DNA of 64,000 bases from assembly GCA_009779255.1 (NCBI GenBank), contig WREQ01000002.1, positions 59 through 64,058 on the forward strand, in the 5' to 3' direction. The notes beneath the pieces were generated by a model. The model did not search any database. It was given only the letters and a program-made list of their open reading frames with translations, and had not been told where the DNA came from. Positions 4,685-64,000 of this stretch are shown piece after piece. This DNA is from Dehalococcoidia bacterium. GTDB taxonomy: Bacteria; Chloroflexota; Dehalococcoidia; Dehalococcoidales; UBA1222. How positions within the stretch are numbered: the stretch's first letter is position 1; each line of letters begins with the position of its first letter. The translations under genes were made by a program, and so were the position numbers.

Positions 4685-4740
4685 GGGTTACGCTCCTTTT
4701 CATTTTTTATTGGTTTTTGTTCCCGCGTATAGCGGCTGGG

Positions 4741-5346: not shown

Positions 5347-5415
5347 GGGTTACGCTCCTTTCGTTTTTTATTGGTTTTTGTTCCCGCGTAAAGCGAGTCT
5401 GCGCATCGCGCTTGG

Positions 5416-5928
5416 TCAAACTACGATCAGTTCAAACTCCACGTTCGCCCCGTTCATCTGGGACAGGCTTTCATCCAGAGAATAGGTGCTGATTTTCAGT
5501 ATCGCCGTGTGCGTGCCTTTCGGAAGCGGCTTGGTCAGCTTCAAGTCCTCAATGCACATGGACGGCTCCACAAAGTCCGACTTGTAATAACGCTCGCCGT
5601 TTATGACAAGTTCAAAGACGAAATAACAGGGGTTGCCCTCCGGGTTGAGTAAAATCATCTTAACGTCTGTCGTACCCGACGGGAGCCTCACCGTGTCGTA
5701 ACCGGGTATTTTAATGCCCGACGTACCGCCCTTGTTCTCCGGCTCTCTGCCCGTGTACTCCTTCGCGCTCTCGTCCAGCTTGAAGACGATACCACCGACG
5801 GACGGGTTATTGTCGGATATGTCGGCGGGATTGTGGAAAAAGATGAAGTACGCTCCCACTCCGATTGCCGCGATGAGTACAGCCGCAATGATTATGACAT
5901 GCCTTGCTTTGAGCGTGATTGATTCCAT
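5416..5928 (-). CDS. N-terminally membrane-anchored protein of unknown function (170 aa)
   Basis: One hydrophobic helix (HVIIIAAVLIAAIGVGAYFIFF) followed by a beta-rich ~130-aa domain. RBS GGGGAAAGG upstream. First gene of the three-gene minus-strand unit. Confidence 0.8.
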   Translation of the reverse strand: MESITLKARHVIIIAAVLIAAIGVGAYFIFFHNPADISDNNPSVGGIVFKLDESAKEYTGREPENKGGTSGIKIPGYDTVRLPSGTTDVKMILLNPEGNPCYFVFELVINGERYYKSDFVEPSMCIEDLKLTKPLPKGTHTAILKISTYSLDESLSQMNGANVEFELIVV

Positions 5929-6421: not shown

Positions 6422-7222
6422 GTGGACCTCATCAATACCGCTGTCAAAATACGCGCCCGACCCAAACTGTACGAGCCGAACCTGCTGGCGGCTTGGCCTG
6501 GCATTTCCAATGTGGCCATGATAGTAGCCGGATATATCGCCCGCAAGCTGGAGTTCAAGAATCTGGCGGAAGTACGTGCGCCGCTGTTTTTCGACCCAGT
6601 CGGCGTCATGGTGCGCAACAATCTTGTCGAAGAACCACGCTTCCCCCAGAGCAACTTTTACTACTATAAAAATCCCGGCGAAGGCCGTGACCTGATTCTG
6701 TTCATGGGTGAGGCTCAGCCCCCCGCCAACAGCTACGATTTGGCAGGCGTCATCATTGATGCCGCGCAGCGCTTCAGGGTACAGCGCATCTATACCTGCG
6801 CCGCCGCCATTACCCGCATACACCATACCGAGGAGCCGCGGGTGTGGGGAGTAGGCACAACACCAGACGTGGTACAGGAACTCTCGGCGCACAGCCTGGT
6901 GCAAGGCGGCAGCCTGCAAATCGCCGGTATGAACGGCATACTGCTGGGAGTGGCCAAGGAACGAAACTTGGAAGGCGCCTGTCTGCTGGGAGAGGTGCCA
7001 GGTTATACCACCCAGCTGTCCAACCCGATGGCGGCGCTGGCGGTAGCACAGTCACTGGCCAGCCTGCTCAAAATCAAAATCGATTTCGATGAGCTGAAGG
7101 CCGGAGCCGCCGAGGCGCGCCGGCGCATGAAGCAAATAGCCGCCGAAGCCATGGAGGAATACATCGACTATTTTACCGAGCCGGTGTGGGAGCGTGGTGA
7201 AGATGAATCCGCAGAAGAGTGA
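6422..7222 (+). CDS. PAC2 (proteasome-assembly-chaperone-2-like) family protein
   Basis: 266 aa. The overall pattern (..PNLLAAWPGISNVAMIVAGY.., ..AGMNGILLG..) recalls PAC2/DUF75-type proteins. The family call is from memory. GTG start. Confidence 0.55.
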   Translation: MDLINTAVKIRARPKLYEPNLLAAWPGISNVAMIVAGYIARKLEFKNLAEVRAPLFFDPVGVMVRNNLVEEPRFPQSNFYYYKNPGEGRDLILFMGEAQPPANSYDLAGVIIDAAQRFRVQRIYTCAAAITRIHHTEEPRVWGVGTTPDVVQELSAHSLVQGGSLQIAGMNGILLGVAKERNLEGACLLGEVPGYTTQLSNPMAALAVAQSLASLLKIKIDFDELKAGAAEARRRMKQIAAEAMEEYIDYFTEPVWERGEDESAEE

Positions 7223-8186
7223 CCCCACCCCCCAACAAAAAACGGCGCTGGCCGAGATTTTGCCGCACATCGCCGACAGCGCAACGCCGCTCTCCAATGC
7301 CAAGATTAGCGAACTTTCCGATCTGACCGCCGGTGAACTGAAACAATTTGAAGCCGTCTGGAGCGGCATGGACACCGAACGAAAACAACAACTTCTGTCA
7401 CGCCTGTCCGAGTTGAGCGATGATAATGTGGAACTCAACTTTGACCGCATCTACCGCAACGCCATCTACGACATCGACGACACCGTGCGAAAAGAAGCCA
7501 TCGAAGGACTATGGGAAAGCTCCGACACTTCGCTGATCAGGCCGCTGCTGCGACTGGCGCAAGATGACCCAGCCACGGACGTGCGAGCCGCCGCCACCGC
7601 CGCGCTGGGACGTTTTTCACTGCTGGCAGAGCATCATAAAATCTCCGCTGAGAACCGCACGCGTATTTCCGAGGTGCTGCTGGCGGTAATCCAAAAGCGT
7701 GAGGAATCACTGGAAGTACGCCGCCGCGCACTGGAAGCCGTCTCGCCCATCAGTCTGCCAGACGTCACACGAGCCATCTGGGAGGCCTACCGCCACGAGG
7801 AGCCGGAAATCAAAATCAGCGCGGTGTACGCCATGGGCCGCAACTGCGACCTGTTATGGATGCCGACCGTGCTCAAGGAAATGGACAGCGACGACCAGGA
7901 GATGCGCTACGAAGCCGCAACCGCTGCCGGCGAACTGGGTGAAGCGGAGGCCATACCGCAGTTGGTGGAACTCACCCGTGACACCGACACAGAAGTCAAA
8001 ATGGCTGCTATCCTGGCACTGGGTAAAATCGGCGGGCAGGAGGCCAGGCAACGCCTGCGCGTGCTGCTTTCCAGCAAAAGCCGTGCCGTGCGCGAGGCCG
8101 CCGGGCAGGCCATGGCCGAACTGGAGTCAGGCGAAGTGCCGCTCAATCCCCACGAGGCCGGTGTCGATGAGCAGGATACCGATTAG
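7194..8186 (+). CDS. HEAT-repeat protein
   Basis: 330 aa with recurring HEAT/PBS-lyase-like units (..VRKEAIEGL.., ..VRAAATAALGR.., ..EVKMAAILALGKIGG.., ..RAVREAAGQAM..). Confidence 0.75.
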   Translation: MVKMNPQKSDPTPQQKTALAEILPHIADSATPLSNAKISELSDLTAGELKQFEAVWSGMDTERKQQLLSRLSELSDDNVELNFDRIYRNAIYDIDDTVRKEAIEGLWESSDTSLIRPLLRLAQDDPATDVRAAATAALGRFSLLAEHHKISAENRTRISEVLLAVIQKREESLEVRRRALEAVSPISLPDVTRAIWEAYRHEEPEIKISAVYAMGRNCDLLWMPTVLKEMDSDDQEMRYEAATAAGELGEAEAIPQLVELTRDTDTEVKMAAILALGKIGGQEARQRLRVLLSSKSRAVREAAGQAMAELESGEVPLNPHEAGVDEQDTD

Positions 8187-37533: not shown

Positions 37534-38127
37534 TCAGGGATACCTCTCAACTAACTGGAACTTTATACCATTCTCCACACAATACCGGTGAGCGTATGAA
37601 TCTGGAGGGCAGATGATGGTGAGGTTGGGGCACTCATAAAAAGCTTCAGCGCCAATACGGACCACACTACCAGGTATCGTTACACTTTCTAAGTTCAAAC
37701 AACCAGCGAAAGCCCCCCAGATTACAGCGTCCCCATCTCTCGGCGTAAACCCGCCGATGTATGTTACACTGAGTGGTATATATATGGTTGTCAGCCTTTC
37801 GCAACCAAGGAATGCTGTATCGTCAATGCCTATTACTCTTCTGCCATCAATCTGCTCTGGTATAACAACATCGCCGTCAGCGCCCGTATATCCAGTTATT
37901 ATCACCATATACATATACTCAGTTGGCGGATGCCAAATTATTGGTAGCTGTTCGAACCAAATTATAGAGTAGGTAAAATCCGAAGCAGGGTTTGGTTCAG
38001 TTCTACTGGTGTTAGTAAGAGTCGGCTGACTGGTTACTGTATTAAGTGAACAACTCACATTGCATAAAGCTAGTAGCGCTACTATGCATACAACAGATAA
38101 AGTACTGCTAAAAACCCCAACCTTCAT
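37534..38127 (-). CDS. secreted/lipoprotein-like leucine-rich-repeat (BspA/LRR_5-type) surface protein
   Basis: 197 aa. N-terminal hydrophobic signal with ..LLALCNVSC... Repeats of the ..AF..C..L..I.IP.SV..IG..AF.. type. Visibly lower GC than the flanks. Confidence 0.8.
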   Translation of the reverse strand: MKVGVFSSTLSVVCIVALLALCNVSCSLNTVTSQPTLTNTSRTEPNPASDFTYSIIWFEQLPIIWHPPTEYMYMVIITGYTGADGDVVIPEQIDGRRVIGIDDTAFLGCERLTTIYIPLSVTYIGGFTPRDGDAVIWGAFAGCLNLESVTIPGSVVRIGAEAFYECPNLTIICPPDSYAHRYCVENGIKFQLVERYP

Positions 38128-48585: not shown

Positions 48586-49632
48586 CTACCCATTTTTGAT
48601 GTACCTCGTGTTTCGCGCCGTGCCGACTTTTTTGATGACGCCCTCTCTGACCATAGAGCCAAGCACCGCCTCTATTGTTGTCGGGCTTACATCTGGCAGG
48701 ACATACGCCAGTTCCGCTTTCGAAACTGGAAGCAGATTGTTCAGCACGGCCGCCTCCACCCGCCGCATCTTTGTAACGCGCACACCTTGCACCACGGCAA
48801 AACGCTTGTCCAGTTCCTTGTAACACACCAGCAGCGCTTGCAGAAAGTTTTCGATGAACTGGAAATAGCTGTTCCGGTTCTCATGCCATCCGTCAGAGGA
48901 CAAGCGCAGCGCTTCATAATACATCGTCTTGGTATGGTTTATCTGTTCCTCGAAGGAGATATACCTCCCCACGTAAAACCCATTCTTGTACAGCAGGAGC
49001 AGAGAGAGCAGCCGTGACATCCTGCCGTTTCCATCCAAAAACGGGTGTATACAGAGGAAATCGAGAACAAAGCATGGTATGAGTAAAAGGCTGTTGACAC
49101 CAGCGCTGCGGCGCGCGTCCATGAAGGCCAGGAGCAACTGCTCCATCGTATCCGCCGTTTCGCTGGCCGGGGTGGGAGCAAAACGGACTTTTCGCCTGCC
49201 GGAGGCGTCCGTCTCCATGATGACGTTATCGGACTGCTTGTAGGTACCGCCGCCTGCCGAAGTATACGAAAGCATGGCGCGGTGAAGCCCCAGAATGTCA
49301 GCTTCACGCATGTCAAGCGCCTTGTAGCCATTATGGACTGCGGCGAGAGCGTCGCGGTATCCCGCTATTTCCATTTCATCATGGTTCAACGGCGCGCTGT
49401 TTTGATTGACAATCTCGGCAATACGTTTCTCACTGGTAACAATGCCTTCGATTTCATTTGACCCTTTGACGGACTGCACCCGCGCAATGCCTTCCAGACT
49501 CGTAAAGATGCCGGGATATGAATCCTTGCGGGCAATATCCAGCGCTTTGAGTTCACTGATGGCACCAGTGATGTTAAGAAGTTTAGCTGGGAGTAGACCG
49601 TTTTCCAAAAATGAGTAGTCAAAACGCTTCAT
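48586..49632 (-). CDS. Fic-family protein (putative AMP-transferase) with an N-terminal inhibitory-helix motif and a C-terminal winged-helix-like region
   Basis: 348 aa. Canonical Fic motif HPFLDGNGRMSR. Upstream SNEIEG fits the (S/T)xxxE(G/N) auto-inhibition motif. Confidence 0.9.
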   Translation of the reverse strand: MKRFDYSFLENGLLPAKLLNITGAISELKALDIARKDSYPGIFTSLEGIARVQSVKGSNEIEGIVTSEKRIAEIVNQNSAPLNHDEMEIAGYRDALAAVHNGYKALDMREADILGLHRAMLSYTSAGGGTYKQSDNVIMETDASGRRKVRFAPTPASETADTMEQLLLAFMDARRSAGVNSLLLIPCFVLDFLCIHPFLDGNGRMSRLLSLLLLYKNGFYVGRYISFEEQINHTKTMYYEALRLSSDGWHENRNSYFQFIENFLQALLVCYKELDKRFAVVQGVRVTKMRRVEAAVLNNLLPVSKAELAYVLPDVSPTTIEAVLGSMVREGVIKKVGTARNTRYIKNG

Positions 49633-51634: not shown

Positions 51635-51877
51635 CTAAAGCAGAATGACCCCGGTTATCACCAGCGCCGCCGCGATAACCAGCGCAATCCTGCCTCCGGT
51701 AATCAGAGCGCCCGGCTGCGGGCTTTCCGGATTATGGGTAAGGAATTCGCGCAGGTCTTCCTTCTGCGCCAAAGCATTATCCAAATCGACTCTTTCACGG
51801 CGTCCCCACAGAACAAACCCTATTCCCAGGCCGGCAAAAAACGCGGCCAGCACAAAAGCCCATGCGGCAGCTGACAC
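51635..51877 (-). CDS. small two-TM membrane protein (80 aa)
   Basis: GTG start preceded by AAGGAGGA. Two hydrophobic helices flank a charged loop. Confidence 0.6.
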   Translation of the reverse strand: MSAAAWAFVLAAFFAGLGIGFVLWGRRERVDLDNALAQKEDLREFLTHNPESPQPGALITGGRIALVIAAALVITGVILL

Positions 51878-52113: not shown

Positions 52114-53763
52114 CTACCTCAGCTCCAGCTCTTTCTTCTTTTTATCAAAGATGAGCACGACGACAAGAATCTCCAGGATGAAGATAGTCGCGTTCACAAT
52201 GGTCCAAATGTCCACCAGCCGCACAGGCATGCTCATGTCCTCGGTCAGGAAGAAGACGATGACGCCGATAACAGCCAGGATGCCGACAACGAACAGCCAG
52301 AGGTACTTCACTGTGCGGACTTCCTGGTGGCCTTCTTTATCTTTGACACCATTCCACAAGAAGGCTCTGATCAACACCAGAACGGCCAGCAGCACCCCCA
52401 GGAGACAGAGGATGAGGTTGACGAGCGCCCATGGGTCGCCGTCTGAAGGCGGCGGCGGCGGATCACCACCCGTCGTCTGCGTCCAGTTGGCCCTTACGGT
52501 GACGTCGTTTGCCGGCATGGTGAAGGTGGTGGTGGCGCTGCTTGAGTTAGCCAGCGTAACGCCGCCCGAAACAACCGTCCAGCCAATGAAGGTATATCCG
52601 TCTCTGGCGCCGGCGTGGATGGTTACGACATTGCCGGGGGTGTAAGTGCCAGCGCCGGTGGTAGAAGCATAGCTGTCGTTGACGTAGACGGTATAGGCAG
52701 GAGGAGGCGGCGGGGAAGTCGTCTGTGTCCAATTGGCTCTTACGGTGACGTCGTTTGCCGGCATGGTGAAGGTGGTGGTGGCGCTGCTTGAGTTAGCCAG
52801 CGTAACGCCGCCCGAAACGACTGTCCAGCCCGCAAAGGTATATCCGTCTCTGGCGCCGGCATTGATGGTTACAACACTGCCAGGGGTGTAAGTGCCAGCG
52901 CCGGTGGTAGAGGCATAGCTGTCATTGACGTAGACGGTATAGGCAGGAGGAGGCGGCGGAGAAGTCGTCTGTATCCAATTGGCTCTTACGGTGACATCGT
53001 TTGCCGGCATGGTAAAGGTGGTGATACCGCTGTTTGGAGTAAACAGGGTCACGCCGCCGGAAACGACCGTCCATCCGGTGAAGGTATATCCGTCTCTGGC
53101 GCCGGCATGGATGGTTACGACCTCACCTTGGGCATAAGTCCCAGCGCCCGTGGGAGAAGCATAGCTGTCGTTGACGTAGACTCTATAGGCGGGCGGCTGC
53201 GGGGTGGCGGTAGTGGGAGGGGCGATATAAGAATGATTATAGCTTATACCATCGACCTTATCGCCAGCCTGGTTGCGGATAACCACTGTTGTTATGTCAT
53301 GCTCACTGCCGGCACGGACTTCAATGGTATACACCGCGTCGTCATAGGAATAACCAGGGAGACCGTGGGACGTAATATGGGTAAGGTCATAAGTATAGGT
53401 ACCGGTAGCCGCCACGCTGAAATCCAGAATGAGAGGCTGGTTCACCGTACCCGCCAGGGTAAAGATATAACTACCAGAATCAATGTAGCCACCGCTGATG
53501 TTGCTTGGCAAGGGATGGAAAGGCGTCCTTGGGGTAAGCTTATAGGTAAAACCAGCATTCGGAGCTGCTGCCGTATCGCCGGTAAAGTGCTGTTCAACGC
53601 TCTGGGTAACCACGCCCGGGGCCGCCATCACTGCAGGCGGGGTACCCAGGATATTCCCAAGCAGACAAACGGCTAAAATGACAGGGAGGGCAACCCCACC
53701 GACTTTGCCTATTTTAGCCTGGAGTATTCTTTTTATACCGGAAAGCATGGTGGTCATATTCAT
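52114..53763 (-). CDS. membrane-anchored pilin-domain / Listeria-Bacteroides-repeat surface protein (candidate basal pilus subunit)
   Basis: 549 aa. Signal peptide, then an FctA/Spy0128-like pilin-type segment (GFTYKLTP.., GTYTYDLTH...YSYDDAVYTIEVR). Three 82-aa repeats (..GYTF.GWTVVSGGVTL...FTMPANDVTVRANW) with PPPPP linkers. Three C-terminal TM helices and a KKKK tail. No sorting motif. Confidence 0.8.
   Translation of the reverse strand: MNMTTMLSGIKRILQAKIGKVGGVALPVILAVCLLGNILGTPPAVMAAPGVVTQSVEQHFTGDTAAAPNAGFTYKLTPRTPFHPLPSNISGGYIDSGSYIFTLAGTVNQPLILDFSVAATGTYTYDLTHITSHGLPGYSYDDAVYTIEVRAGSEHDITTVVIRNQAGDKVDGISYNHSYIAPPTTATPQPPAYRVYVNDSYASPTGAGTYAQGEVVTIHAGARDGYTFTGWTVVSGGVTLFTPNSGITTFTMPANDVTVRANWIQTTSPPPPPAYTVYVNDSYASTTGAGTYTPGSVVTINAGARDGYTFAGWTVVSGGVTLANSSSATTTFTMPANDVTVRANWTQTTSPPPPPAYTVYVNDSYASTTGAGTYTPGNVVTIHAGARDGYTFIGWTVVSGGVTLANSSSATTTFTMPANDVTVRANWTQTTGGDPPPPPSDGDPWALVNLILCLLGVLLAVLVLIRAFLWNGVKDKEGHQEVRTVKYLWLFVVGILAVIGVIVFFLTEDMSMPVRLVDIWTIVNATIFILEILVVVLIFDKKKKELELR
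52465..53196 (-). repeat. three tandem ~246-bp coding repeats
   Basis: Repeat starts PAYRVYVND / PAYTVYVND / PAYTVYVND at residues 191, 273 and 355. Copies 2 and 3 are almost identical at the DNA level by eye. Confidence 0.9.
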
Positions 53764-53764
53764 C

Positions 53765-54709
53765 CTACCCCTCGTATTGCAAATTGCGGTGGTTACGGCG
53801 ACGTTTGTTCCGCATGATTAAGAACAGAATCAGTACCAGGAAGAGAACCAGCAGGATTACGATGATAATCTTGCCCCACAGTGGGATACTCTCCCACAGG
53901 CCAGGAAGACCATCAACCGCCTTGGACTCTCCAATAAGTTTGTTCGTTTCCGACTCGTTAAAAGTTTCATAGGTAATCCTCCCGATAAGGATATCCCGTC
54001 CGCTGGTGGAGGAGCTGGAACAGGTGGCGAGGAGGATAATCCGATCCGAGGTGTCAACCCCGATATCGCGGGAATGGATGGCCATTTCCCCAATGCGATC
54101 AAGATATGCCTGTTGGGCTGGCTGCCCCGTGACGCGGGGATGGAAAATCTGGTAATCATAAGCACTGGTGTGGATAAAAGCGAAGAACTCCAGCCCGTAT
54201 TCTTTGCCATCATAATACAACATACCGTAAGGACGGGCTTCAAAATATTTCTGGTCGGCGAAGTTCCCAATCTCCCCGAACATGACCTGTTTTTCCATGT
54301 GGTGCCCGTAAATGATAGAGTTGAAATCGGAAAAATTCCGACTGCTACTGGCATCAATGAATATGGCGCCGGACAGGGAATATTTCCCTTCGGCGTTGGT
54401 ATTGACATACTTGAGGTTGTTTCTCCCCTGAACTACGGGATAGTCGATATTGGTGCCGTAGACCGTAAGCCAGGCGCAGACATCAGTGTTAATTGCCTGG
54501 AGTCTGGTAAAGGCCTCCCCGGCGTTCTCAGCTGTGGGTTTATATATCTCATAGCGGGCGGCGCTGGCAGCACCTGTGACTTGGTTGGAATCCCACATGG
54601 CGTAGCAGCCGATAGTAATAAGTAGCATCAAAGACATCAGAACGACGGTGTCTAAAACACCATGCGCCGCCTTGATGGCCCTCTTTCCTATCTTAACTGC
54701 TACGCTCAT
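53765..54709 (-). CDS. sortase, class B-like, with an extra C-terminal TM helix
   Basis: 314 aa. N-terminal anchor. ..NTDVCAWLTVYGTNIDYPVVQG.., His motif IYGHHM, Cys motif LLATC, Arg in SGRDILIG. C-terminal IIIVILLVLFLVLILFLI plus RNKRRR. Confidence 0.88.
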   Translation of the reverse strand: MSVAVKIGKRAIKAAHGVLDTVVLMSLMLLITIGCYAMWDSNQVTGAASAARYEIYKPTAENAGEAFTRLQAINTDVCAWLTVYGTNIDYPVVQGRNNLKYVNTNAEGKYSLSGAIFIDASSSRNFSDFNSIIYGHHMEKQVMFGEIGNFADQKYFEARPYGMLYYDGKEYGLEFFAFIHTSAYDYQIFHPRVTGQPAQQAYLDRIGEMAIHSRDIGVDTSDRIILLATCSSSSTSGRDILIGRITYETFNESETNKLIGESKAVDGLPGLWESIPLWGKIIIVILLVLFLVLILFLIMRNKRRRNHRNLQYEG

Positions 54710-54751
54710 ATGGGTTCTTACCTTAAAGGTTCGTGTTTTTAAGCTACAACC

Positions 54752-56173
54752 TTAGGAGATAACCGGTTCCTCTTGGTTGTCTTTCCTTTTGCGGGACTTG
54801 ATGGCCACGAAGAGTACGAGGCCGCCGACAGCCAGAACAATGAGGCCTACGAAGGCCAGGGTGTTCAGGTTGAGGCCGGTGGGCGGATCTTCGCTGTAGG
54901 TGTTGGTGAACAGGGCATAAGAATCACCCTGCTCAATGTCGCCTACATACAGGTTGGGGATGGGGGTGGCGTCAGCGGTGGGATCGTTGACGTTCAGGTA
55001 GACAACAGGGATGCCGAGGGGAGAGGCAACAGTGCTGCTCCAGCCGCCCTTAGCGTTGCCGTAGGCTTCGCCGTTAAGGTAAACAACGGCAAATGGGTAG
55101 TACTTGACAGCTCCGGCTTCGGCGACGGCGTAGGTGGCACTAGCCTCCAGGCCGGAGAAGAAGACCAGGCGCTGGCCGTCTTCCAGTGTGATACCGGTCT
55201 TCGCTACACCAGAGATGAATTCAATGTAGAGACCGTAGGCGCTAGTACCGGCAGAGTCGTTGACGTTGGTGACGTTAAGCCACGTACCAGGGTTGAGGAT
55301 GTCTTCCTGCATGACGGCAGCCCAGTACACTGAGGTGTTGTCAACGGTAGCAGGCTGGGTGACGGTCACGGTGAAATCAAAAGAGGTTACGGTACCGCCG
55401 ACGATATCCTTTTGAATGTACAGGAAGCCTTTGCCGTCGGTGGGGGTAGTGGTGTCGAATATGCGGTCGATGGTGTTGGTGAAAGCCAGGCCGTAGGCGC
55501 CTCCGCTGGTATCTACCTTGCCCAGGGTATCGGTAAAGTCATCGCCGAAGTCATCAACAGCCTTGAAGCCATAGACGCCGAAGATATAGAGGTCACCGAC
55601 TTGATGGTCAGGGCAACCAGCAGTATTGCATTCCTCAATGACGACGTAGAGGTAATACACGGCCTCGGAATAGTGCAGGTAGTCCTCGTAGTCAACACCG
55701 TCGGCTGTTACGTCGTCGCCAAGGAAGGCAGGGTTGGTGGCAGGCACGGTTTCCACAATCTCGTAGATGTAAATACCGGCAAGGCTCCAGGTAACGGCGT
55801 CTAAATCAATCTTTTCTTCCGCGTAGTAGTTGTCGTAGCCGTTAGGAACGGCAATGTCAGCTGCAGTCTCGTTGCCGTCAAAGGAGATGATGACGGTGTT
55901 GGCGCCACTAGTGACAAAGGTAAGCCCGGGCATGGTACTAGCGACGGTCTTATCGCCATTAAAGGAATACGGGGTGATGGTGAATTCAAAGTCGAGAGCG
56001 CCCGAATAGTTCGTAAATACAATACCGGAGGGGACCTTCAGCACTTTGGTAACGTAGGCTTCGGTGATAGCGTCTGGATCCACGGGGTCGGCCATAACAG
56101 ACACCGGCAGTGTTGTAAGACACAGCGCCAGCGTCATCAGGGAGGCCAAGGCTAGTTTGAGTTTCTTGGTCAT
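54752..56173 (-). CDS. two-domain pilin-like sortase substrate (candidate backbone pilin), sorting signal DPPTG
   Basis: 473 aa. Signal peptide ..LPVSVMA/DP. ..IYIYEIVETVP...YSEAVYYLYVVIEE... Two domain-terminal FTNT motifs. C-terminus EDPPTG, hydrophobic helix, KSRKRK. Confidence 0.85.
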   Translation of the reverse strand: MTKKLKLALASLMTLALCLTTLPVSVMADPVDPDAITEAYVTKVLKVPSGIVFTNYSGALDFEFTITPYSFNGDKTVASTMPGLTFVTSGANTVIISFDGNETAADIAVPNGYDNYYAEEKIDLDAVTWSLAGIYIYEIVETVPATNPAFLGDDVTADGVDYEDYLHYSEAVYYLYVVIEECNTAGCPDHQVGDLYIFGVYGFKAVDDFGDDFTDTLGKVDTSGGAYGLAFTNTIDRIFDTTTPTDGKGFLYIQKDIVGGTVTSFDFTVTVTQPATVDNTSVYWAAVMQEDILNPGTWLNVTNVNDSAGTSAYGLYIEFISGVAKTGITLEDGQRLVFFSGLEASATYAVAEAGAVKYYPFAVVYLNGEAYGNAKGGWSSTVASPLGIPVVYLNVNDPTADATPIPNLYVGDIEQGDSYALFTNTYSEDPPTGLNLNTLAFVGLIVLAVGGLVLFVAIKSRKRKDNQEEPVIS

Positions 56174-56279
56174 GCTTTTCCTTTCAGTTTTTTTTATTTT
56201 TTTGTTTTATATAAACAGGGGGTTAAGCCCGCCTGATACCTTTCATGGCAAGTTCTGTCATGTTTTAGTTGACACAAGG

Positions 56280-57047
56280 CTAGAGTCCTCTCCAGCGCAA
56301 GATAGTAATAACCGAACCCTTGGTGTCCTTGACGTTCACGGCTCCGTAGATACGGCTGTCGGTAGCGCTGGCTCGGGCATCACCCAAAACGAAGACCTCA
56401 TCTGCCTTTAACAGCATGGGAAAGCTGACGTCGCTCATGTACCGCTCGGTCTTCTCATAAATATCCGGCTCCTGCACCAAGGCGCTGTTCACCAGTAGGC
56501 CGTGGGTGTTGATATCAACAGTATCCCCTGCCACAGCCACCACCCTGCGAACCTGGGTCTGCCCCTCAAAGGTCAGGAGGAGAAGGTCGCCGGGTTCGTA
56601 GGACTTGTCCCAACGGTAATACATCACCAGGTCCCCGTCCTTCATCGCCGGAACCATCCCGGGTTCGCTGTTGTAGTGAATGCCATAGACAAAAGTGAAA
56701 GCCGCCACGGCCACGGCCACAATGATGCCGATTTTTGCTCCCAACCCCCCCAGCTCCCGCAGGAAAGAGTAGGAAGAAGAGCGGCGGGCAGGCGCCTTAG
56801 GGCGCGGCGGGACAGGGGTTGCGCCGCTACCCTCACTGCAAGTGGAAGTCGCGCTGCCAACCCCAGCAGGCCTTTTGCCCAACTCTACCTGGGAGGCAGA
56901 CGACACCTTTCCCTCACTGTGGCCGGAGGATATCACGGCATCGCTCCTGCCGGGTGGCGGCAAGATGACGGTATCCTCCCCCGAGGTGGGGGCAGGCAAA
57001 CCAGACGGGTTATTGTTTGAATCCATCTTGTCTTCAAGTCTCTCCAT
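56280..57047 (-). CDS. signal peptidase I (S26) homologue lacking the Ser/Lys dyad (SipA/LepA-like pilus accessory protein)
   Basis: 255 aa. Pro/Ser/Gly-rich N-terminal region, one TM. GMVPAMKDGD aligns to SMxPTLxxGD (Ser to Gly130). VRRVVAVAGD aligns to xKRxxGxPGD (Lys to Arg167). GDARASATDSR box retained. Confidence 0.8.
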   Translation of the reverse strand: MERLEDKMDSNNNPSGLPAPTSGEDTVILPPPGRSDAVISSGHSEGKVSSASQVELGKRPAGVGSATSTCSEGSGATPVPPRPKAPARRSSSYSFLRELGGLGAKIGIIVAVAVAAFTFVYGIHYNSEPGMVPAMKDGDLVMYYRWDKSYEPGDLLLLTFEGQTQVRRVVAVAGDTVDINTHGLLVNSALVQEPDIYEKTERYMSDVSFPMLLKADEVFVLGDARASATDSRIYGAVNVKDTKGSVITILRWRGL

Positions 57048-57050
57048 AGA

Positions 57051-60000
57051 TTAGGCTGCCTGATCGGCGCGGCGACGTGACTTCCATGTGGTAAATGACG
57101 CCACAGCACCTAAGGCCAGAGCGATGAGACCAAGGAAGTGTTGTCCTCCCAGAGAAAGACCAGTGGGCGGAACAACGGCGTCCCAATGATTAGTGAATGC
57201 GAACTCGCGGTCAATCGTTATGGCATGAAGCTCGGTATCATTGCCTACCGTGACAGAGGTGCCTTCGCTGTCGGTAAAAGAGACCATGTAGGGGATAGGC
57301 ATCGGGTTGCCATTGGCATCCACACCAAGGAAATCCACTGTCTCGACGACTCTGATAAAGCCTACCAGCGGGACGCCCGCTATCACGATGTGCTGGCCGT
57401 GCTTGAGGTAGAATGTCGCAGCGCCGTTAGCATCCAGCCTCAACGTGCCGGTTTTGTCCACAGTTGTGCCGGTGTAGATGACGTAGCCAAACTCCGTGCC
57501 CACCGCAAACGGCGTGGGCAGGATGGGATTGGGCGTCGCACTCGGGTCGCCCTGGTCGCTGAAGAAGTACACCGTAAACTCCCAGTCCATGGTCGGGTTG
57601 CCCATCTTGCCTGTCACTGTCTTGCTCACCGTCAATGTCGTGCCGGAATTTATGTAGTTAATCTGGTCGTTGGTCAGTAGCGCGCCGTCGAATTGGCTGT
57701 TGATGCGGGTGATGGCGCTGAGGAGCGCATAGTTGACCGGCGGCGTATAACTTTGTCCCGCCGTGTTCCCGATTACCATCGCCGTACCGCCGCTCACGAC
57801 AATACCGTCTGCGATTCTGATGTTGCCGTAGGCAATGCTCGGGAACTTAAGTGGGTTGTTGTACGCGTTATGTGTGACGCCGCCGTCATTGCTGTCGCGC
57901 CATTCCGTGTAGATGCCGCCGCCGTCCTGCGTTGCCGTGTTGTCCGAGATGACGCCGCCGGTCATTTCGAGAACGCCGTCGATGGTCACATACACGCCGC
58001 CGCCATTGGCATTGGCCTTATTACCAGGAATCTTACCGCCGTTCATGGTAAATGAGCCATCGTTGTAAACGCCGCCGCCGTTGGTAGCTGTGTTGGCATC
58101 AGGGGCATTCTCACCGCCGATCGTGCCGCCGGTCATGGTAAAAGTTCCGGCACTATACACACCGCCGCCATTGTTGACTGCCGTATTACCAGAAACCTTA
58201 CCGCCTTCCATGGTAAATGTGCCGCCAACGGCTACATACACGCCGCCACCGTTGTTTGCTATGTTGCGGTTGATAACGCCATCACCAGGCTTCTCAAAGA
58301 CACCGCTGGCGCCTACGTATATGCCGCCGCCGTCGCTGGCAGCTCTATTATTAGAAACAGCACAGTTATCCCCCATTTCAAACGCGCCGTTATTATATAC
58401 GCCGCCGCCGAACGAAGCTTCGTTGTAGCTGATCTCGCCGTTGTAGTTCCTCATCTCAAAAATGCAGCCGCTCGCAATATACACGCCGCCGCCAAGTTCA
58501 GCCGTGTTCGCATGCCCGTTAACGCCAATGGCGCCACCGTACATCTCAAACCTGCTTGCGTTGGTAACATACACACCGCCGCCGTCATCAATTGCTGTAT
58601 TACCGGAAATCTCACCGTTAAACAAGGTGAAGAAAGACGCATCGGCTACATATACGCCACCACCCAGGGTCGCAGTGTTGCCTCTAATGACGGGAACGAT
58701 AGTATCGCTGGACATTTCGAATTCGCCGTTGATTGCGCACACGCCGCCGCCATACTCAGCCGTATTGCCACTGATCTCGCCGCCTTTGATAACAAGCCGC
58801 TTGCCTGCTGTGCTATTGCTGACGTAATACACGCCGCCACCGCCGCCAACTGCCGTGTTGTCGCTGATGGTGCCGGCTTCTATAACGAAGCTACCGCTAC
58901 TTCCGTCATAATACACGCCACCGCCATCCTGCGATGCCGTGTTGTCGGAGATAACGCCGCCTTTCAGGATGAAGCCGCTGGCAATGCTACTTCCGTCATA
59001 ATACACGCCGCCGCCGTTGGTAGCTGTGTTGCCGGAGATGGCACCGTCTTCCATGATGAAGCTGTTGACAGTGCTGCTTCCGTCATAATACACGCCGCCG
59101 CCGTTGGATGTTGCCGTATTGCCGGAGATCGTGCCGTCTTCCAGGGTGAACGTGCCGGCGTTGTAAACACCGCCGCCGTTGGATGTTGCCGTATTGCCGG
59201 AGATCTTGCCGTCTTCCATGGTAAAGGTGCCCCAGTTGTAAACGCCGCCGCCGCGGGCAGCTGTGTTGGCATCAGAGGCATTCTCGCCGCCGATCGTGCC
59301 GCCGGTCATGGTAAAAGTTCCGGCATTATACACGCCGCCGCCAACGCCATTGGTCGCATTACCAGAAATCTTACCGCCTTCCATGGTAAAGGGTCCCTCG
59401 TTGTAAACGCCGCCGCCGGCGGATGTTGCCGTATTGCCGGAGATGGTACCGTCTTCCATATTGAACGTGTCGACGTTGTAAACACCGCCGCCGATTGTTG
59501 CCGTATTGCCGGCGATCGTGCCGCCTTCCATGGTAAAGAGGCCCTCGTTGTAAACGCCGCCGCCGTTGGTAGCTGTGTTGGCATCAGAGGCATTATCACC
59601 GCCGATCGTGCCGCCGGTCATGGTGAACGTGCCACTGTTAAGCACACCGCCGCCAGATGCTGCCGTATTGCCGGAAATCGTGCCGTCTTCCATGGTAAAG
59701 GTGCCCTCGTTGAAAACACCACCGCCGCCGTCCTGCGTTGCAGTATTGCCGGAGATGGTGCCGTCTTTCATGGTGAAGGTGCCGCCGACATAGATATAAA
59801 CGCCGCCGCCGCCGAATGCTGCCGTATTGCCGGAAATCGTGCCGTCTTCCATGGTGAAGGTGCCGCCGACATAGATATAAACGCCGCCGCCATCGGTAGC
59901 TGTGTTGGCATCAGAGGCATTCTCGCCACCGATCGTGCCGCCGGTCATGGTGAAGGTACCCATCATGAAGCTACAAACGCCGCCGCCGATTGATGCCGCA

Positions 60001-63000
60001 TTGCCGGAGATGGTGCCGTCTTCCATGGTGAATGTACTGGCGTTGAAAACACCGCCGCCGTTGCCGCCACTGGATGTTGCCGTATTGCCGGAGATCGTGC
60101 CGTCTTTCATAGTAAAGGTGCCACTGTTAAGCACGCCACCGCCGCTGCCGAGTGTTGCCGTATTGCCGGAGATCGTGCCGTCTTCCATGGTGAACGTGCC
60201 GACGTTATATACACCGCCGCCGTTGTAGGTGACTTTGTTGCCGGAGATGACGCCGCCGGTCATGGTGATTGTGCCTGTGCCACTGTTGGCCACACCGCCG
60301 CCATTGCTGATTGCCGTATTACCAGAGATGGCGCCGCCTTTCATAGTGAAGGTGCCGCCGAAGTTGCTGATGTAAACGCCGCCGCCGGTGTCATTCTTAC
60401 AATTCGTTATCACAGCACCGTCTTCCATGGTGAAGGCGCCGCCGTTATTCACCGCCACACCGCCGCCAGTGACATCCGTGTCATCGCCGTCAAGGATGAT
60501 ATTGCTGATGGTTAGGCTGCCATTTACAGTGAGGTGCCGATTTGTACTGAGCTGCGTAATCGTCCACTGGTTACCAGTGTCCGACGTGAGGGTGATGTTT
60601 TTGCCCGCCGGTATGACCACCGCCGCGTTCTTATACGACGTAGCGATTGGCCCCTTCGGATCAGTTCCGGCAAAGTCAGACATATCGAGGTCATCTTCCA
60701 GCGCAACTATCGTCCACGGATTTCCCGTATTTGTCGGGTCGCAAGCCGCAACCGCGTCTGCCAGCCAGTAGTAGGTGCCAATGAGGGTGCCTGTAGCGGG
60801 GGTGCCGTCCCAGACTTGGTAGCGATCGGGGATCGGCGAGGTAACAATAAGGTCATCGCCGCTGACGCCTATGATATAGCCGGGTATTGCGGTCGCTGCA
60901 GAGGAATGCAACGTGAAATGCGACGCATTCGAGTTAATGGCACCATCGACGACCAGCACCGCCGTTGCAGGCGGGACCGGCCATGCGGACGTGGGTGTTG
61001 CGCCATAACCCAGGCGGACCTCAACAGGGATCGTCGGGGTGAACGTTGCTGGAGTAGACAAGCCGCCCGTGTTAACCAAGACCGTTCCCGTTATCGTCGG
61101 GGAACCGCTCAGGCTGACAAGCCCTCCGGCCACATTGTTGTAGACCGCATAACCTGTGGTGGCCGAGACAGAGCCGCCGTTGATGTTGATAGAACCGGTC
61201 ATTTGGTTGAATATCGCATAGCCTGTCGTGGCCGATACATTGCCGCCGCTGATGTTGACCATGCCAGTCGAGTGGTTGTTGATCGCCCTGCCGGTGGTGG
61301 CAGATACCGTTCCGCCGCTGATTGTGATGGTGCCAGCATTATCGTTGTAGATCGCTCTGCTGTTGGTGTTGTTTGCGTTGTTCTGTACTTTGCCGCCGGT
61401 GATCGTGAGGATATTATTGCCGGCTGTGCCGCCTGCAAGATATATCGTGCCCTGAGCAGCAGCCGGATTATCCGAAGTGACCTCTGTGGGGATCGTGGAG
61501 GTTGTTTCCGATATTGTTATCAGGCCTGTCGAGTTGTTGTATATCGCAACCCCGACCGTGGCCGAGACAGTGCCGCCGCTGACATTGATCGCGCCAGTCG
61601 AATTGTTGTAGACCGCCATGCCGCTTGTGGCCGAGACCCTTCCGCCACTGATGTTGACCGTGCCGGCACCATTGTTAAAGATCGCGTTGCCGCCGGCTGC
61701 GGTGTTCTCCACTATACCGCCGGTGATCGTGAGGACACCACCTACATGGCGTATCGTACCCTGAGCGCTGTTGGTATGCGCCGAAGTGATCCTTGTGGGG
61801 ATCGTGGAGGTTGTTTCCGATATCACGATCGTGCCAACCACCTGGTTGTTGATCGCAATGCCAGTGCCGGACGATACCGTTCCGCCGCTGATTGTGAGCG
61901 TCGCACTGGTAGATTGGTTGACGATCGCAGCGCCGGTGGTGGACGATACCGTTCCGCCGGTGATCGTGACCGGACCGCCTGACGATCCGGTGAGGATCGT
62001 AGTGCCGGTGCCGGACGACACTATTGCCGAACCGCTGATTGTGACCGCGCCTGCCCCGAAGTTGTAGATCGCCATGCCTGTGTCAGTGGCCGAGACCGTG
62101 CCGCCGGTGATGTTGACCGTGCCGGTCGATTGGTGCCAGATCGCCCTGCCGGTCGTCGCCGTGACAGCGCCGCCAGTGACGGTGACCGTACCTGTCCCGG
62201 CGGTGCCGATCGTCCCGTTGACGCCAGTCGATGAGACCACACCGCCGGTGACGGTGAGGTTACCGCTGTTGACCTGTACGGCACGCGCATTAGACTGTGT
62301 GTTGGAGTTGTTTATTGCGCCGGTGCTTGTGACGTTCACGCCGGAGCTGATGTTAATTACACCGGTGGCCACCGAGCCGGTGGTATTGGCCGTAATCGAG
62401 CCGCCCAGAGTTATGTTGCCCCAGTTCTCAGAGAGTGCTGTACTGTTCTCGAACGTTATATTCTGCGAACCTATGTTGAGCTGGCCTGTGCCGGTGTATG
62501 GTGTGGTGGCCGTGTTTAGTGCGTTCGCGAAGAATATGCTGCAAGCGTTACCTTCCGCATCCGCGCGTATCAGGTCTATCAGGTTCTGAACGTTGGTGTT
62601 GGTATAACCGGCGCCGCCTATCTGATAGTGTGAGCCGTCGTCCATGAATCCAATCGCCGCAAAGGCGGATGTGCTTACGTACACTATGTACTCATAGGTC
62701 TTATCGAGTGCCCTAAGGACAAGGTTATTCCCGACCTCAATTATCTCGAAACCTGCGCCGGACGGCTGGTGAAGCTGGAAGCTGTTCAGATAGCTTGTGC
62801 CGTTGACATTAGCTCCGTTCACCACAACGACGTCGCCGTGTGCGTAAGCGGCTAACTGGACCGTATACATCTTGCTTACGGGCGCAAACGGCGTGCCAGT
62901 TGTGAGAGCGGTCAGTCTGTTCTGGGTGACGTAGATCGTTCCCGTTATGGTCGGATTGCCGCCGAGATTCACTGCTCCTGCCGCCGCATTGCAATAGACC

Positions 63001-64000
63001 GCATAAACGTCGCCCGTGACCGTGCCGCCGGTGATGTTCACGATCCCGGAACTTGCGTTGTATATCGTGCGGGCGTTGGCATTGGCCGCAGTGTTCGATA
63101 CCGTGCCGCCGGATATGTTGATCGTTCCGCCTGCTACGTTGCGTATCGTACCCTGGGTGTTGTTAGTGTTCGCCGATGTCACGATCGTCGGGACGGTGCT
63201 CGACGCTTCGGATATCGTTATCACTCCGAGGGAGGAGTTCCAGATCGCCACGCCTGCGCCGCTCTGTACCGTGCCGCCGGATATATTGACCGCTCCGGTG
63301 GAGACATTCTCGAGCGCGTGGGCAGCACCGGTGTTCCGCACCGTGCCGCCGGATATGTCAATCGTTCCGTTGAATTGGTTCACGATTGCGGAGTACGGGC
63401 TGTTGGCTGATACCATGCCGCCGGATATCATTATCACTCCGCTGGAGTTGTTCCGGATCGCGACGCCGCCGTTGGCTGAGACCGTACCGCCGGTGATGTT
63501 CACAATCCCGGAACCTGCGTTGTATATCGTGCGGGCGTTGCCATTGGCCGAGGGATTCGATACCGTGCCGCCGGATATGTTGATCGTCCCGCCTACGACA
63601 TTGTGTATCGTGCCGCTGGTGGCGGATACGTTCGCCGATGTCACGAGCGTCGGGTTGGTGCTCGACGCTTCGGATATCGTTATCACTCCGGTGGAGTCGT
63701 TCCATATCGCCGCGCCTGTGTTGCTCCGGACCGTACCTCCGGATATGCTGACCGTGCCGGCCCCATTGTTAAAGATCGCGTTGCCTGTGCCGGTGTTCTC
63801 GATCAAGCCGCCGGTGATCGTAAGCCTCGGCCCCGTGGTCGCGCCTGAGGAGATGTCGATCACGTAACTTCCGGGGTTCCCTCTTATGATCGTCGGGTTC
63901 GACGTTTCCGATATCGTTACATGCCCCGTGCTTAAGCTGTATATCACCCTGCCCGAGCCTGTGTTCACTACCGTACCGCCGGATATGTCGATCGCTCCGG
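57051..64000 (-). CDS. giant beta-helix-repeat surface adhesin, sorting signal VPPTG (5'-truncated by the window edge)
   Basis: The frame is open to position 64000 (codons upstream of the listed GTG read ..GAIDISGGTVV..), giving more than 2,300 aa. Two repeat families: ISGGTVSxxxGxAIxN, and GGGVYxxGTFTMxxGxISGNTA. C-terminal CnaB/pilin-like domain (TVSKTVTG...AFTNHW), then VPPTG, TM, KSRRR. Confidence 0.9.
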   Translation of the reverse strand, partial: GAIDISGGTVVNTGSGRVIYSLSTGHVTISETSNPTIIRGNPGSYVIDISSGATTGPRLTITGGLIENTGTGNAIFNNGAGTVSISGGTVRSNTGAAIWNDSTGVITISEASSTNPTLVTSANVSATSGTIHNVVGGTINISGGTVSNPSANGNARTIYNAGSGIVNITGGTVSANGGVAIRNNSSGVIMISGGMVSANSPYSAIVNQFNGTIDISGGTVRNTGAAHALENVSTGAVNISGGTVQSGAGVAIWNSSLGVITISEASSTVPTIVTSANTNNTQGTIRNVAGGTINISGGTVSNTAANANARTIYNASSGIVNITGGTVTGDVYAVYCNAAAGAVNLGGNPTITGTIYVTQNRLTALTTGTPFAPVSKMYTVQLAAYAHGDVVVVNGANVNGTSYLNSFQLHQPSGAGFEIIEVGNNLVLRALDKTYEYIVYVSTSAFAAIGFMDDGSHYQIGGAGYTNTNVQNLIDLIRADAEGNACSIFFANALNTATTPYTGTGQLNIGSQNITFENSTALSENWGNITLGGSITANTTGSVATGVINISSGVNVTSTGAINNSNTQSNARAVQVNSGNLTVTGGVVSSTGVNGTIGTAGTGTVTVTGGAVTATTGRAIWHQSTGTVNITGGTVSATDTGMAIYNFGAGAVTISGSAIVSSGTGTTILTGSSGGPVTITGGTVSSTTGAAIVNQSTSATLTISGGTVSSGTGIAINNQVVGTIVISETTSTIPTRITSAHTNSAQGTIRHVGGVLTITGGIVENTAAGGNAIFNNGAGTVNISGGRVSATSGMAVYNNSTGAINVSGGTVSATVGVAIYNNSTGLITISETTSTIPTEVTSDNPAAAQGTIYLAGGTAGNNILTITGGKVQNNANNTNSRAIYNDNAGTITISGGTVSATTGRAINNHSTGMVNISGGNVSATTGYAIFNQMTGSININGGSVSATTGYAVYNNVAGGLVSLSGSPTITGTVLVNTGGLSTPATFTPTIPVEVRLGYGATPTSAWPVPPATAVLVVDGAINSNASHFTLHSSAATAIPGYIIGVSGDDLIVTSPIPDRYQVWDGTPATGTLIGTYYWLADAVAACDPTNTGNPWTIVALEDDLDMSDFAGTDPKGPIATSYKNAAVVIPAGKNITLTSDTGNQWTITQLSTNRHLTVNGSLTISNIILDGDDTDVTGGGVAVNNGGAFTMEDGAVITNCKNDTGGGVYISNFGGTFTMKGGAISGNTAISNGGGVANSGTGTITMTGGVISGNKVTYNGGGVYNVGTFTMEDGTISGNTATLGSGGGVLNSGTFTMKDGTISGNTATSSGGNGGGVFNASTFTMEDGTISGNAASIGGGVCSFMMGTFTMTGGTIGGENASDANTATDGGGVYIYVGGTFTMEDGTISGNTAAFGGGGVYIYVGGTFTMKDGTISGNTATQDGGGGVFNEGTFTMEDGTISGNTAASGGGVLNSGTFTMTGGTIGGDNASDANTATNGGGVYNEGLFTMEGGTIAGNTATIGGGVYNVDTFNMEDGTISGNTATSAGGGVYNEGPFTMEGGKISGNATNGVGGGVYNAGTFTMTGGTIGGENASDANTAARGGGVYNWGTFTMEDGKISGNTATSNGGGVYNAGTFTLEDGTISGNTATSNGGGVYYDGSSTVNSFIMEDGAISGNTATNGGGVYYDGSSIASGFILKGGVISDNTASQDGGGVYYDGSSGSFVIEAGTISDNTAVGGGGGVYYVSNSTAGKRLVIKGGEISGNTAEYGGGVCAINGEFEMSSDTIVPVIRGNTATLGGGVYVADASFFTLFNGEISGNTAIDDGGGVYVTNASRFEMYGGAIGVNGHANTAELGGGVYIASGCIFEMRNYNGEISYNEASFGGGVYNNGAFEMGDNCAVSNNRAASDGGGIYVGASGVFEKPGDGVINRNIANNGGGVYVAVGGTFTMEGGKVSGNTAVNNGGGVYSAGTFTMTGGTIGGENAPDANTATNGGGVYNDGSFTMNGGKIPGNKANANGGGVYVTIDGVLEMTGGVISDNTATQDGGGIYTEWRDSNDGGVTHNAYNNPLKFPSIAYGNIRIADGIVVSGGTAMVIGNTAGQSYTPPVNYALLSAITRINSQFDGALLTNDQINYINSGTTLTVSKTVTGKMGNPTMDWEFTVYFFSDQGDPSATPNPILPTPFAVGTEFGYVIYTGTTVDKTGTLRLDANGAATFYLKHGQHIVIAGVPLVGFIRVVETVDFLGVDANGNPMPIPYMVSFTDSEGTSVTVGNDTELHAITIDREFAFTNHWDAVVPPTGLSLGGQHFLGLIALALGAVASFTTWKSRRRADQAA
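57911..60480 (-). repeat. array of degenerate ~22-25-codon coding repeats (GGGVY..GTFTM.DG.ISGNTA)
   Basis: Dozens of recurrences are visible both in the translation and as recurring DNA strings (e.g. ggtgccgtcttccatggtgaa, acgccgccgcc). Boundaries are approximate. Confidence 0.85.

Follow-up and report, generated by a model that had tools for sequence, protein, structure and literature searches.

Introduction

Sortase-assembled pili are usually described as wall-anchored structures of Gram-positive bacteria. The systems closest to the one considered here are the FCT-2/3/4 pili of Streptococcus pyogenes, encoded in the order cpa, sipA/lepA, fctA, srtC and fctB, and the PI-2 pili of Streptococcus pneumoniae and Streptococcus oralis, encoded by pitA, sipA, pitB, srtG1 and srtG2. 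A stretch of 64,000 nucleotides (nt) from the metagenome-assembled genome (MAG) of a Dehalococcoidia bacterium (GCA_009779255.1, contig WREQ01000002.1, positions 59 to 64,058), hereafter called the window, ends in five minus-strand genes of closely similar content. These genes probably constitute a complete pilus operon of the streptococcal FCT-2/3/4 and PI-2 kind, in which assembly would depend on a SipA-like protein and polymerisation on a class B sortase. The operon would have been acquired horizontally into the chromosome of the Dehalococcoidia MAG, which is of a termite-gut type, and the fibre would be held in the membrane by the fifth protein. The kind of operon is itself known. What is new is the unusual host phylum, Chloroflexota, and a membrane-anchored base that is uncharacterised in the literature searched, yet not unique to this organism.

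Comparison with described pilus systems

The order of the five genes in the window is the same as in the S. pyogenes FCT-2/3/4 operons. Common to both systems are a class B pilus sortase, a SipA-like helper lacking the Ser–Lys dyad, a two-domain pilin of the Spy0128 fold with Lys/Glu/Asn triads and an equivalent linking lysine, and sorting signals of the xVPTG/VPPTG type. In both, the fifth protein appears to resemble the N-terminal domain of the pilin, with a linking lysine and without an internal isopeptide. In contrast to Cpa, which is a thioester-domain protein, the adhesin of the window is a beta-helix giant of at least 6268 amino acids (aa). The base of the window pilus lacks the LPXTG-type signal for SrtA and carries instead a FILTED domain of three transmembrane (TM) helices behind three InlB B-repeats. 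The SipA homologue has Gly and Arg, not Asp and Gly, at the positions of the dyad and bears a long N-terminal extension, and the host is a member of the Chloroflexota.

The PI-2 system is similar in other respects. PitB is the best structural match of the window pilin, the vTPTG consensus of the pilin family is PitB-like, and S. oralis PI-2 loci (L083-L085) are recovered by the same sortase scan that finds the other relatives described below. However, the second sortase gene of PI-2 follows srtG1 directly, with no basal-pilin gene between them, whereas the sortase gene of the window is followed by the gene of a putative FctB-like, membrane-anchored protein. Clostridioides difficile SrtB is a class B sortase for proline-rich (S/P)PxTG signals, which are comparable to the PPTG and PKTGD signals of the operons considered here. 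This enzyme attaches individual proteins to peptidoglycan, does not polymerise pili and lacks a SipA partner.

Organization of the operon

The operon consists of five co-directional open reading frames (ORFs), all intact. In the direction of transcription they encode the tip adhesin (57051..64000 and beyond, partial, with the N-terminus past the window), the SipA/LepA-like protein (56280-57047, 255 aa), the backbone pilin (54752-56173, 473 aa), the sortase (53765-54709, 314 aa) and the fifth protein (52114-53763, 549 aa). Counted from the fifth gene, the intergenic gaps are 1, 42, 106 and 3 nt. An earlier note, made from the letters of this DNA, had described five minus-strand genes spaced by 1-106 nt, and both the coordinates and the gaps agree with the ORFs. 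The motifs quoted in that note are all found: AVVPPTG and KSRRR in the adhesin, EDPPTG and KSRKRK in the pilin, YGTNIDYPVVQG, IYGHHM, LLATC and SGRD in the sortase, and three C-terminal hydrophobic segments in the fifth protein. Its proposal of an FCT-type pilus order (cpa-sipA-fctA-srtC-fctB) with a class B sortase is supported by profile, PDB, Foldseek and profile–profile matches. The profile hidden Markov model searches that it suggested for the five proteins match the sortase, Peptidase_S26, Flg_new_2, FILTED and DUF7601 families at scores far above chance level. A combined promoter and terminator scan does no better than chance, with no promoter-like site above the expected number.

Class B sortase

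The 314-aa protein scores 183.2 bits against the NCBIfam class B sortase model TIGR03064, for which the cutoff is 153.75 bits. Its best PDB match is 4Y4Q (E 1e-67), which we take to be SrtG1, and it also matches Spy0129 (3PSQ, E 1e-43). The active-site residues are His136/His137 in IYGHHM, Cys230 in LLATC and Arg238 in SGRD, and they are invariant in 32 homologues. They match His126/127, Cys221 and Arg229 in the active site of Spy0129 (PMC11231552). The sortase carries a TM helix at each terminus.

Backbone pilin

The 473-aa pilin consists of a signal peptide and two immunoglobulin (Ig)-like domains. A PDB sequence search with the pilin gives no match, and a word-indexed homologue search returns only the pilin itself. 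A full HMMER search finds 522 cluster representatives at E<=1e-3. An alignment of 85 homologues was used for an AlphaFold model and for residue conservation. The model has a mean predicted local distance difference test (pLDDT) score of 87.1. Its best matches in a Foldseek search of the PDB are the PI-2 shaft pilin PitB (4S3L, E 5e-20; 7W7I), followed by Spy0128 and other T-antigens (E about 1e-14). The pilin fold suspected in the earlier note is thus supported by structure prediction.

Two isopeptide triads are predicted in the pilin, K43/E141/N233 and K255/E352/N424, and the Lys, Glu and Asn residues of both are conserved in 89-100% of the 85 homologues. K219 (55517-55519; "GKVD", family consensus KVDPTPG) is conserved in 84 of the 85 and sits where Spy0128 has its GSKVP lysine, presumably K161, which we take to be the inter-subunit lysine of Spy0128. 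This makes K219 a candidate inter-subunit lysine. The EDPPTG sorting motif (54875..54892, minus strand) is followed by a TM helix and KSRKRK. The consensus sorting signal of the family is vTPTG, of which PPTG is a common variant.

SipA/LepA-like protein

The 255-aa protein matches Peptidase_S26 (E 1.5e-18). Its best PDB matches are SipA (4N31, 2.3e-17) and LepA (4K8W, 3e-16), whereas the true signal peptidase 4NV4 is matched with only 7e-5. When the protein is aligned with 4NV4, Gly130 falls at the position of the catalytic Ser and Arg167 at that of the Lys. Among 59 homologues from related loci, the Lys column holds R in 53 and K in none, and several residues share the Ser column (S 21, G 15, D 12, A 8). 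A missing catalytic dyad is the hallmark of SipA (PMC4049620). Because the SipA-like protein has no Ser–Lys dyad, it is proposed to be a non-proteolytic helper. An active signal peptidase, to which the match to NCBIfam sigpep_I_bact above cutoff would point, is rejected, since both residues of the dyad are replaced. The protein has a single TM helix at about residues 99-125. Residues 1-95 (56763-57047) form a Ser/Pro/Gly-rich, presumably cytoplasmic extension ahead of this helix, and the match to the S. pyogenes SipA construct 4N31 starts only at residue 118.

Tip adhesin

The reading frame of the adhesin is still open at base 63998. The earlier note had put the protein at more than 2,300 aa, and this holds as a lower bound: on an ENA metagenome contig (ERZ27257304 k141_4245263, 60,925 bp; L001 1-7659) this gene is annotated with 6268 aa and runs up to the end of the contig. 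The adhesin thus comprises at least 6268 aa, and its gene, at least 18.8 kb long, ranks among the giant genes. Its body is a repetitive beta-helix, with a weak match to Beta_helix and tandem repeats of 72-312 bp. Pfam DUF7601 is found on residues 2111-2210 of the listed ORF (48.7 bits, cutoff 27), and the C-terminal 200 aa weakly match NCBIfam pilus_ancill_1 and, in the PDB sequence search, Cpa (2XI9). The C-terminus comprises a pilin-type stalk domain followed by the sorting signal, in which the VPPTG motif (57159..57173, minus strand) precedes a hydrophobic segment and KSRRR. The tip adhesin therefore carries a sorting signal of the same class as the backbone pilin. Homologous adhesins stand at the same position in related loci and end mostly in x-P-T-G.

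Fifth protein and its membrane end

From the N- to the C-terminus, the fifth protein comprises a signal peptide, a pilin-like N-domain (53194-53622, about residues 48-190, assigned by homology to the pilin N-domain), three InlB B-repeats (52444-53181; three Flg_new_2 matches, E 6e-46), a linker rich in proline and a three-TM FILTED domain (52129-52431, NCBIfam NF052597), all on the minus strand. The FILTED match scores 86.9 bits against a cutoff of 40 and extends over residues 445-545 and model positions 1-108 of 110. From its charge distribution, in which basic residues occupy both the first loop and the C-terminus, this domain is predicted to have its N-terminus outside and its C-terminus inside. 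No description of the FILTED domain was found in the literature searched. The InlB B-repeats are encoded by a tandem repeat of 246 bp (52472..53190, 2.9 copies); because the copies have 89% DNA matches, the repeats were duplicated recently. The fifth protein has no sorting signal and in particular no FctB-style wall signal of the LPXTG type, and no second sortase gene follows the fifth gene within the 64-kb window.

A word-indexed homologue search with the N-domain gives no match. A PDB-wide phmmer search aligns the N-domain with the N-domain of Spy0128 (E 0.0035) and places K169 (53257-53259, minus strand; "GDKVDG") opposite the GSKVP lysine. In an alignment of 47 fifth-gene products from related loci, Y74, Y125 and K169 are the only invariant residues. 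Consistently, hhalign of these 47 proteins against the 85 backbone pilins gives a probability of 99.1% (E 4e-19), again with K169 opposite K219 of the pilin. The N-domain has H129 at the column of the invariant Glu of the pilin and no conserved Lys in the first strand, so an internal isopeptide is unlikely. This agrees with the published account of FctB, whose Ig-like domain contains no intramolecular isopeptide, whose linking lysine is close to the last strand and whose tail is rich in proline (PMC7900414). The fifth protein is a putative FctB-like basal pilin that would be anchored in the membrane. The earlier note had asked how a fibre could be retained on a cell that has no peptidoglycan. 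The puzzle is real, and it is largely answered by the fifth gene, which would encode a membrane-anchored variant of the basal pilin.

Related operons and two proposed kinds of pilus base

A scan of species-representative genomes with the sortase alignment found 211 relatives, the best 80 of which are described here; the genome that contains the window lies outside this collection. About 70 of the best 80 of 211 loci have the order adhesin, SipA-like protein, pilin, sortase and fifth protein. The hosts of the 80 loci are Oscillospiraceae, Lachnospiraceae (Lacrimispora, Hungatella), Christensenella, Desulforamulus, Family XIII, Coriobacteriia, Propionibacteriaceae, Bifidobacteriaceae, Enterococcus and S. 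oralis (PI-2). Most are termite-gut Oscillospiraceae, other Clostridia, Coriobacteriia and Propionibacteriaceae, and many are MAGs with termite-gut isolate names. None of the 80 belongs to the Chloroflexota, and the top sortase identity among them is only 60%. A scan of JGI metagenomes with the sortase gives seven matches, all on termite-gut contigs and at most 58% identical; none is a further Dehalococcoidia-like copy and none has the same flanks. The closest sortases, with 55-65% identity, belong to Oscillospiraceae, Coriobacteriia and Family XIII. The operon is a common type in termite-gut Bacillota and Actinomycetota, and probably a mobile one.

The five-gene operons of anaerobes (L006-L086; Oscillospiraceae, Lachnospiraceae, Christensenella, Desulforamulus, Coriobacteriia and Propionibacteriaceae), of which no description was found in the literature searched, share the architecture of the window operon at 45-65% sortase identity. 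They differ in that most carry a PKTGD signal in the fifth protein and encode a further sortase of class B-like type, and their phyla are all peptidoglycan-walled. For the majority of loci, xPKTGD stands at the end of the fifth protein, ahead of a TM helix and a basic tail; the adhesins and pilins have x-P-T-G there instead. A second sortase (250-290 aa, TIGR03064 139-176 bits) follows the fifth gene in 26 of the 41 loci with this sorting signal. This shorter class B-like enzyme is encoded in L007, L011, L014, L018-L020, L025, L028, L029, L032 and others. Its pairing with xPKTGD suggests an enzyme devoted to anchoring, with a motif of its own that differs from the x-P-T-G signals of adhesin and pilin.

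The FILTED ending is present in 11 of the 47 aligned fifth proteins: in Coriobacteriia (L009, L010, L013, L027, L071), in Family XIII (L030, L065, L074), in a Clostridiales MAG (L041), in L086 and in the window. The second sortase is found in none of the five FILTED loci counted strictly (Fisher p = 0.011 against 26 of 41) and in none of eight when L041, L071 and the window are added (Fisher p = 0.001). The two endings, that is, the sorting signal with its second sortase and the FILTED domain, are thus mutually exclusive. Both variants retain the invariant lysine that corresponds to K169. On the simplest reading, the endings would be alternative ways of fixing the same basal subunit.

The closest known relative of the window operon is L086, with a sortase 65% and a pilin 45% identical and a very similar FILTED end; it has a Thr-rich linker where the window protein has the InlB repeats. 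A second SipA-like gene lies upstream of the adhesin gene in L011, L025, L029, L031, L050 and L054, and two backbone-pilin genes stand in tandem in L013, L019 and L027.

Host and origin of the operon

The exact proteins of the window are deposited in GenBank on one contig of 68,416 bp as "MAG: ... [Dehalococcoidia bacterium]": the sortase (MCL2678822), the fifth protein (MCL2678821), the pilin (MCL2678823), the SipA homologue (MCL2678824) and EF-G (MCL2678803). This label, which goes no further than the class, agrees with the host proposed in the earlier note. The names given there are class B sortase (MCL2678822.1, "class B sortase [Dehalococcoidia bacterium]"), InlB B-repeat-containing protein, hypothetical protein for the pilin, and signal peptidase I; a pilus is not indicated. 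The earlier note knew of no such pilus in this lineage, and no paper on sortase pili of Dehalococcoidia or Chloroflexi was found in the literature searched.

The window also carries core genes, namely a 16S fragment, TldD/PmbA, S-adenosylmethionine-cycle genes, the S10-spc ribosomal operon, EF-G, rpoA, secY and the shikimate pathway. Because these genes stand on the same contig, the pilus island sits in the core chromosome. The 16S sequence that the earlier note had placed at bases 1-905 lies on the minus strand and is the 5' part of a bacterial gene: it matches the 16S rRNA model over its 5' 931 positions with 934 bits. It is about 90% identical to a D. mccartyi sequence, a figure that is only indicative. 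Termite-gut Chloroflexi MAGs have been reported to be exclusively Dehalococcoidia, mostly Dehalococcoidaceae (PMC7024585).

The GC content does not change over the boundary of the island (0.53-0.585 vs 0.50-0.61). The tetranucleotide correlation with the rest of the window is 0.84-0.92 before the boundary and 0.56-0.77 from about 52 kb on, against 0.85-0.93 for 5-kb controls. Because of this shift in composition and the taxonomic spread of the homologues, horizontal acquisition of the operon is likely, and the donor was most likely a gut member of the Bacillota or Coriobacteriia.

[quoted passage not shown] The peptidoglycan pathway is also missing from two Dehalococcoidia-like aquifer genomes (PMC3971608). 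The window and its overlapping contigs carry housekeeping genes and no cell-wall genes, which is not informative either way. A host that lacks a wall is plausible, a premise that rests on the order to which the MAG belongs.

Other features lie outside the operon. In the stretch 1-1206, the 16S gene is cut by the start of the window, and the TldD/PmbA genes are directly on its 5' side. Three consecutive ORFs of 212, 201 and 170 aa occupy 4046-5928 (minus strand), the first two gave no Pfam match when scanned, and no Pfam hit is recorded for any of the three. A protein of the PAC2 (proteasome assembly chaperone) family and then a HEAT-repeat protein are encoded at 6422-8186 (plus strand), beside acetyltransferase and MaoC-type dehydratase genes. 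A small LRR_5 protein (37534-38127, minus strand) lies between the ribosomal operon and the shikimate genes, and a Fic-domain protein (48586-49632, minus strand) is encoded just outside the pilus island. An ORF of 80 aa that contains two hydrophobic segments (51635-51877, minus strand; GenBank MCL2678820, hypothetical protein) lies 236 nt downstream of the fifth gene.

Alternative explanations

Several points weigh against the reading of the five genes as a complete, membrane-held pilus of a Dehalococcoidia bacterium. Every covalent link in the pilus is deduced from homology. The N-terminus of the adhesin, with any signal peptide, lies outside every sequence read. The model of the N-domain of the fifth protein, built on the alignment with the backbone pilins, has a pLDDT of only 64, and its Foldseek matches to Spy0128 are not significant (E about 0.04). 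Walled Coriobacteriia and Family XIII have the FILTED variant too; it therefore gives no evidence of a wall-less host and is no special adaptation to one, and the fifth protein could be simply a membrane adhesin encoded beside the pilus genes. Peptidoglycan genes and the inventory of sortases can be read only for the 64-kb window and the overlapping contigs, and a foreign composition is also what a mis-joined contig would show.

The last of these points leads to an artefact of assembly or binning, in which an island from co-resident Clostridia or Coriobacteriia was joined to a Dehalococcoidia contig. Tetranucleotide usage changes at the island boundary near 52 kb, the close homologues are all from Bacillota or Actinomycetota with no Chloroflexota among the best 80 of 211 loci, and the sister operon L086 has different flanks, whose composition is unlike the rest of the window (r 0.52). 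However, the same junction of pilus genes, ATP-binding cassette (ABC) transporter, Fic, shikimate genes and ribosomal operon recurs in the GenBank contig of 68,416 bp and in the ENA MEGAHIT contig of 60,925 bp, although the two may share reads. The GC content is equal on both sides, and no repeat or mobile-element gene is seen at the junction; the 5' flank of the island is beyond every contig, as the adhesin gene runs off. We consider such an artefact very improbable, and only slightly more weight falls on the idea that the operon is a recent acquisition carried as silent cargo, unexpressed or non-functional in its host. Such cargo would fit with an island composition not adjusted to the host, with the lack of a promoter-like site above chance and with the failure to find another Dehalococcoidia genome with the operon among the best 80 of 211 species-representative loci or in the metagenome scan. 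It fits poorly with five intact ORFs, one of them the adhesin gene of at least 18.8 kb, and with the retention of all catalytic and linking residues. The in-frame tandem duplication of the InlB repeats, at 89% DNA identity, suggests ongoing evolution under selection.

A somewhat stronger rival, still unlikely, is an ordinary wall-anchored pilus, in which the host keeps peptidoglycan and a housekeeping sortase elsewhere in its genome and the 549-aa protein is an independent membrane adhesin. The dcw genes are kept in basal Dehalococcoidia orders (PMC10608941), the FILTED variant is present in walled bacteria, and PI-2 of S. pneumoniae functions without a dedicated basal pilin (PMC11231552). In contrast, the position of the fifth gene and its lysine are conserved over 47 loci, with this lysine opposite the pilin-linking one. 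The FILTED end excludes the sorting signal with the second sortase, as expected of alternative anchors for the same subunit. Furthermore, neither PPTG protein of the window has a signal of the PKTGD or LPXTG type for a wall-anchoring sortase. The indicative 16S identity of about 90% to D. mccartyi would point to Dehalococcoidales, an order in which the dcw genes are reportedly lost.

Proposed mechanism

For the pilus operon with a membrane-held base, the following mechanism is proposed. Four substrates and helper proteins would be exported through the Sec pathway, and the SipA-like protein would assist assembly without proteolysis. The class B sortase would use Cys230 to cut the xPPTG signals after Thr. 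It would link the giant beta-helix adhesin to a backbone pilin at Lys219 and go on to couple one pilin to the next, again at this lysine. Growth of the fibre would stop upon transfer to the invariant Lys169 of the fifth protein. In the relatives, the PKTGD signal and the second class B-like sortase presumably give attachment to the cell wall. In the window, the three-TM FILTED domain would keep the finished fibre in the cytoplasmic membrane, so that a peptidoglycan acceptor would not be needed, and the three InlB repeats with the proline-rich linkers may serve as a spacer.

Taken further, this would be a sortase pilus that works in a peptidoglycan-free bacterium bounded by a surface layer. The FILTED basal pilin would replace both the sorting signal and the anchoring sortase, and the InlB repeats would space the fibre through the surface layer. 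Because this solution is shared with some Coriobacteriia and Family XIII, it would have let the operon cross from walled phyla into termite-gut Chloroflexota. We advance this wider picture tentatively, as a possibility on the doubtful side.

Biological meaning

Pili of the FCT/PI-2 type, studied almost exclusively in streptococci, occur widely among anaerobic gut Clostridia and Actinomycetota. Should the fifth protein be the pilus base, these operons form a family with two interchangeable anchors, one being a sorting signal accompanied by a second sortase and the other a membrane domain. In its membrane version the anchor would then work without peptidoglycan, which would explain how the operon can function after its transfer into a Dehalococcoidia lineage. 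If this is true, the pilus would provide a first clue to the surface attachment of the poorly known termite-gut Chloroflexota, which would be mediated by an adhesin of at least 6268 aa.

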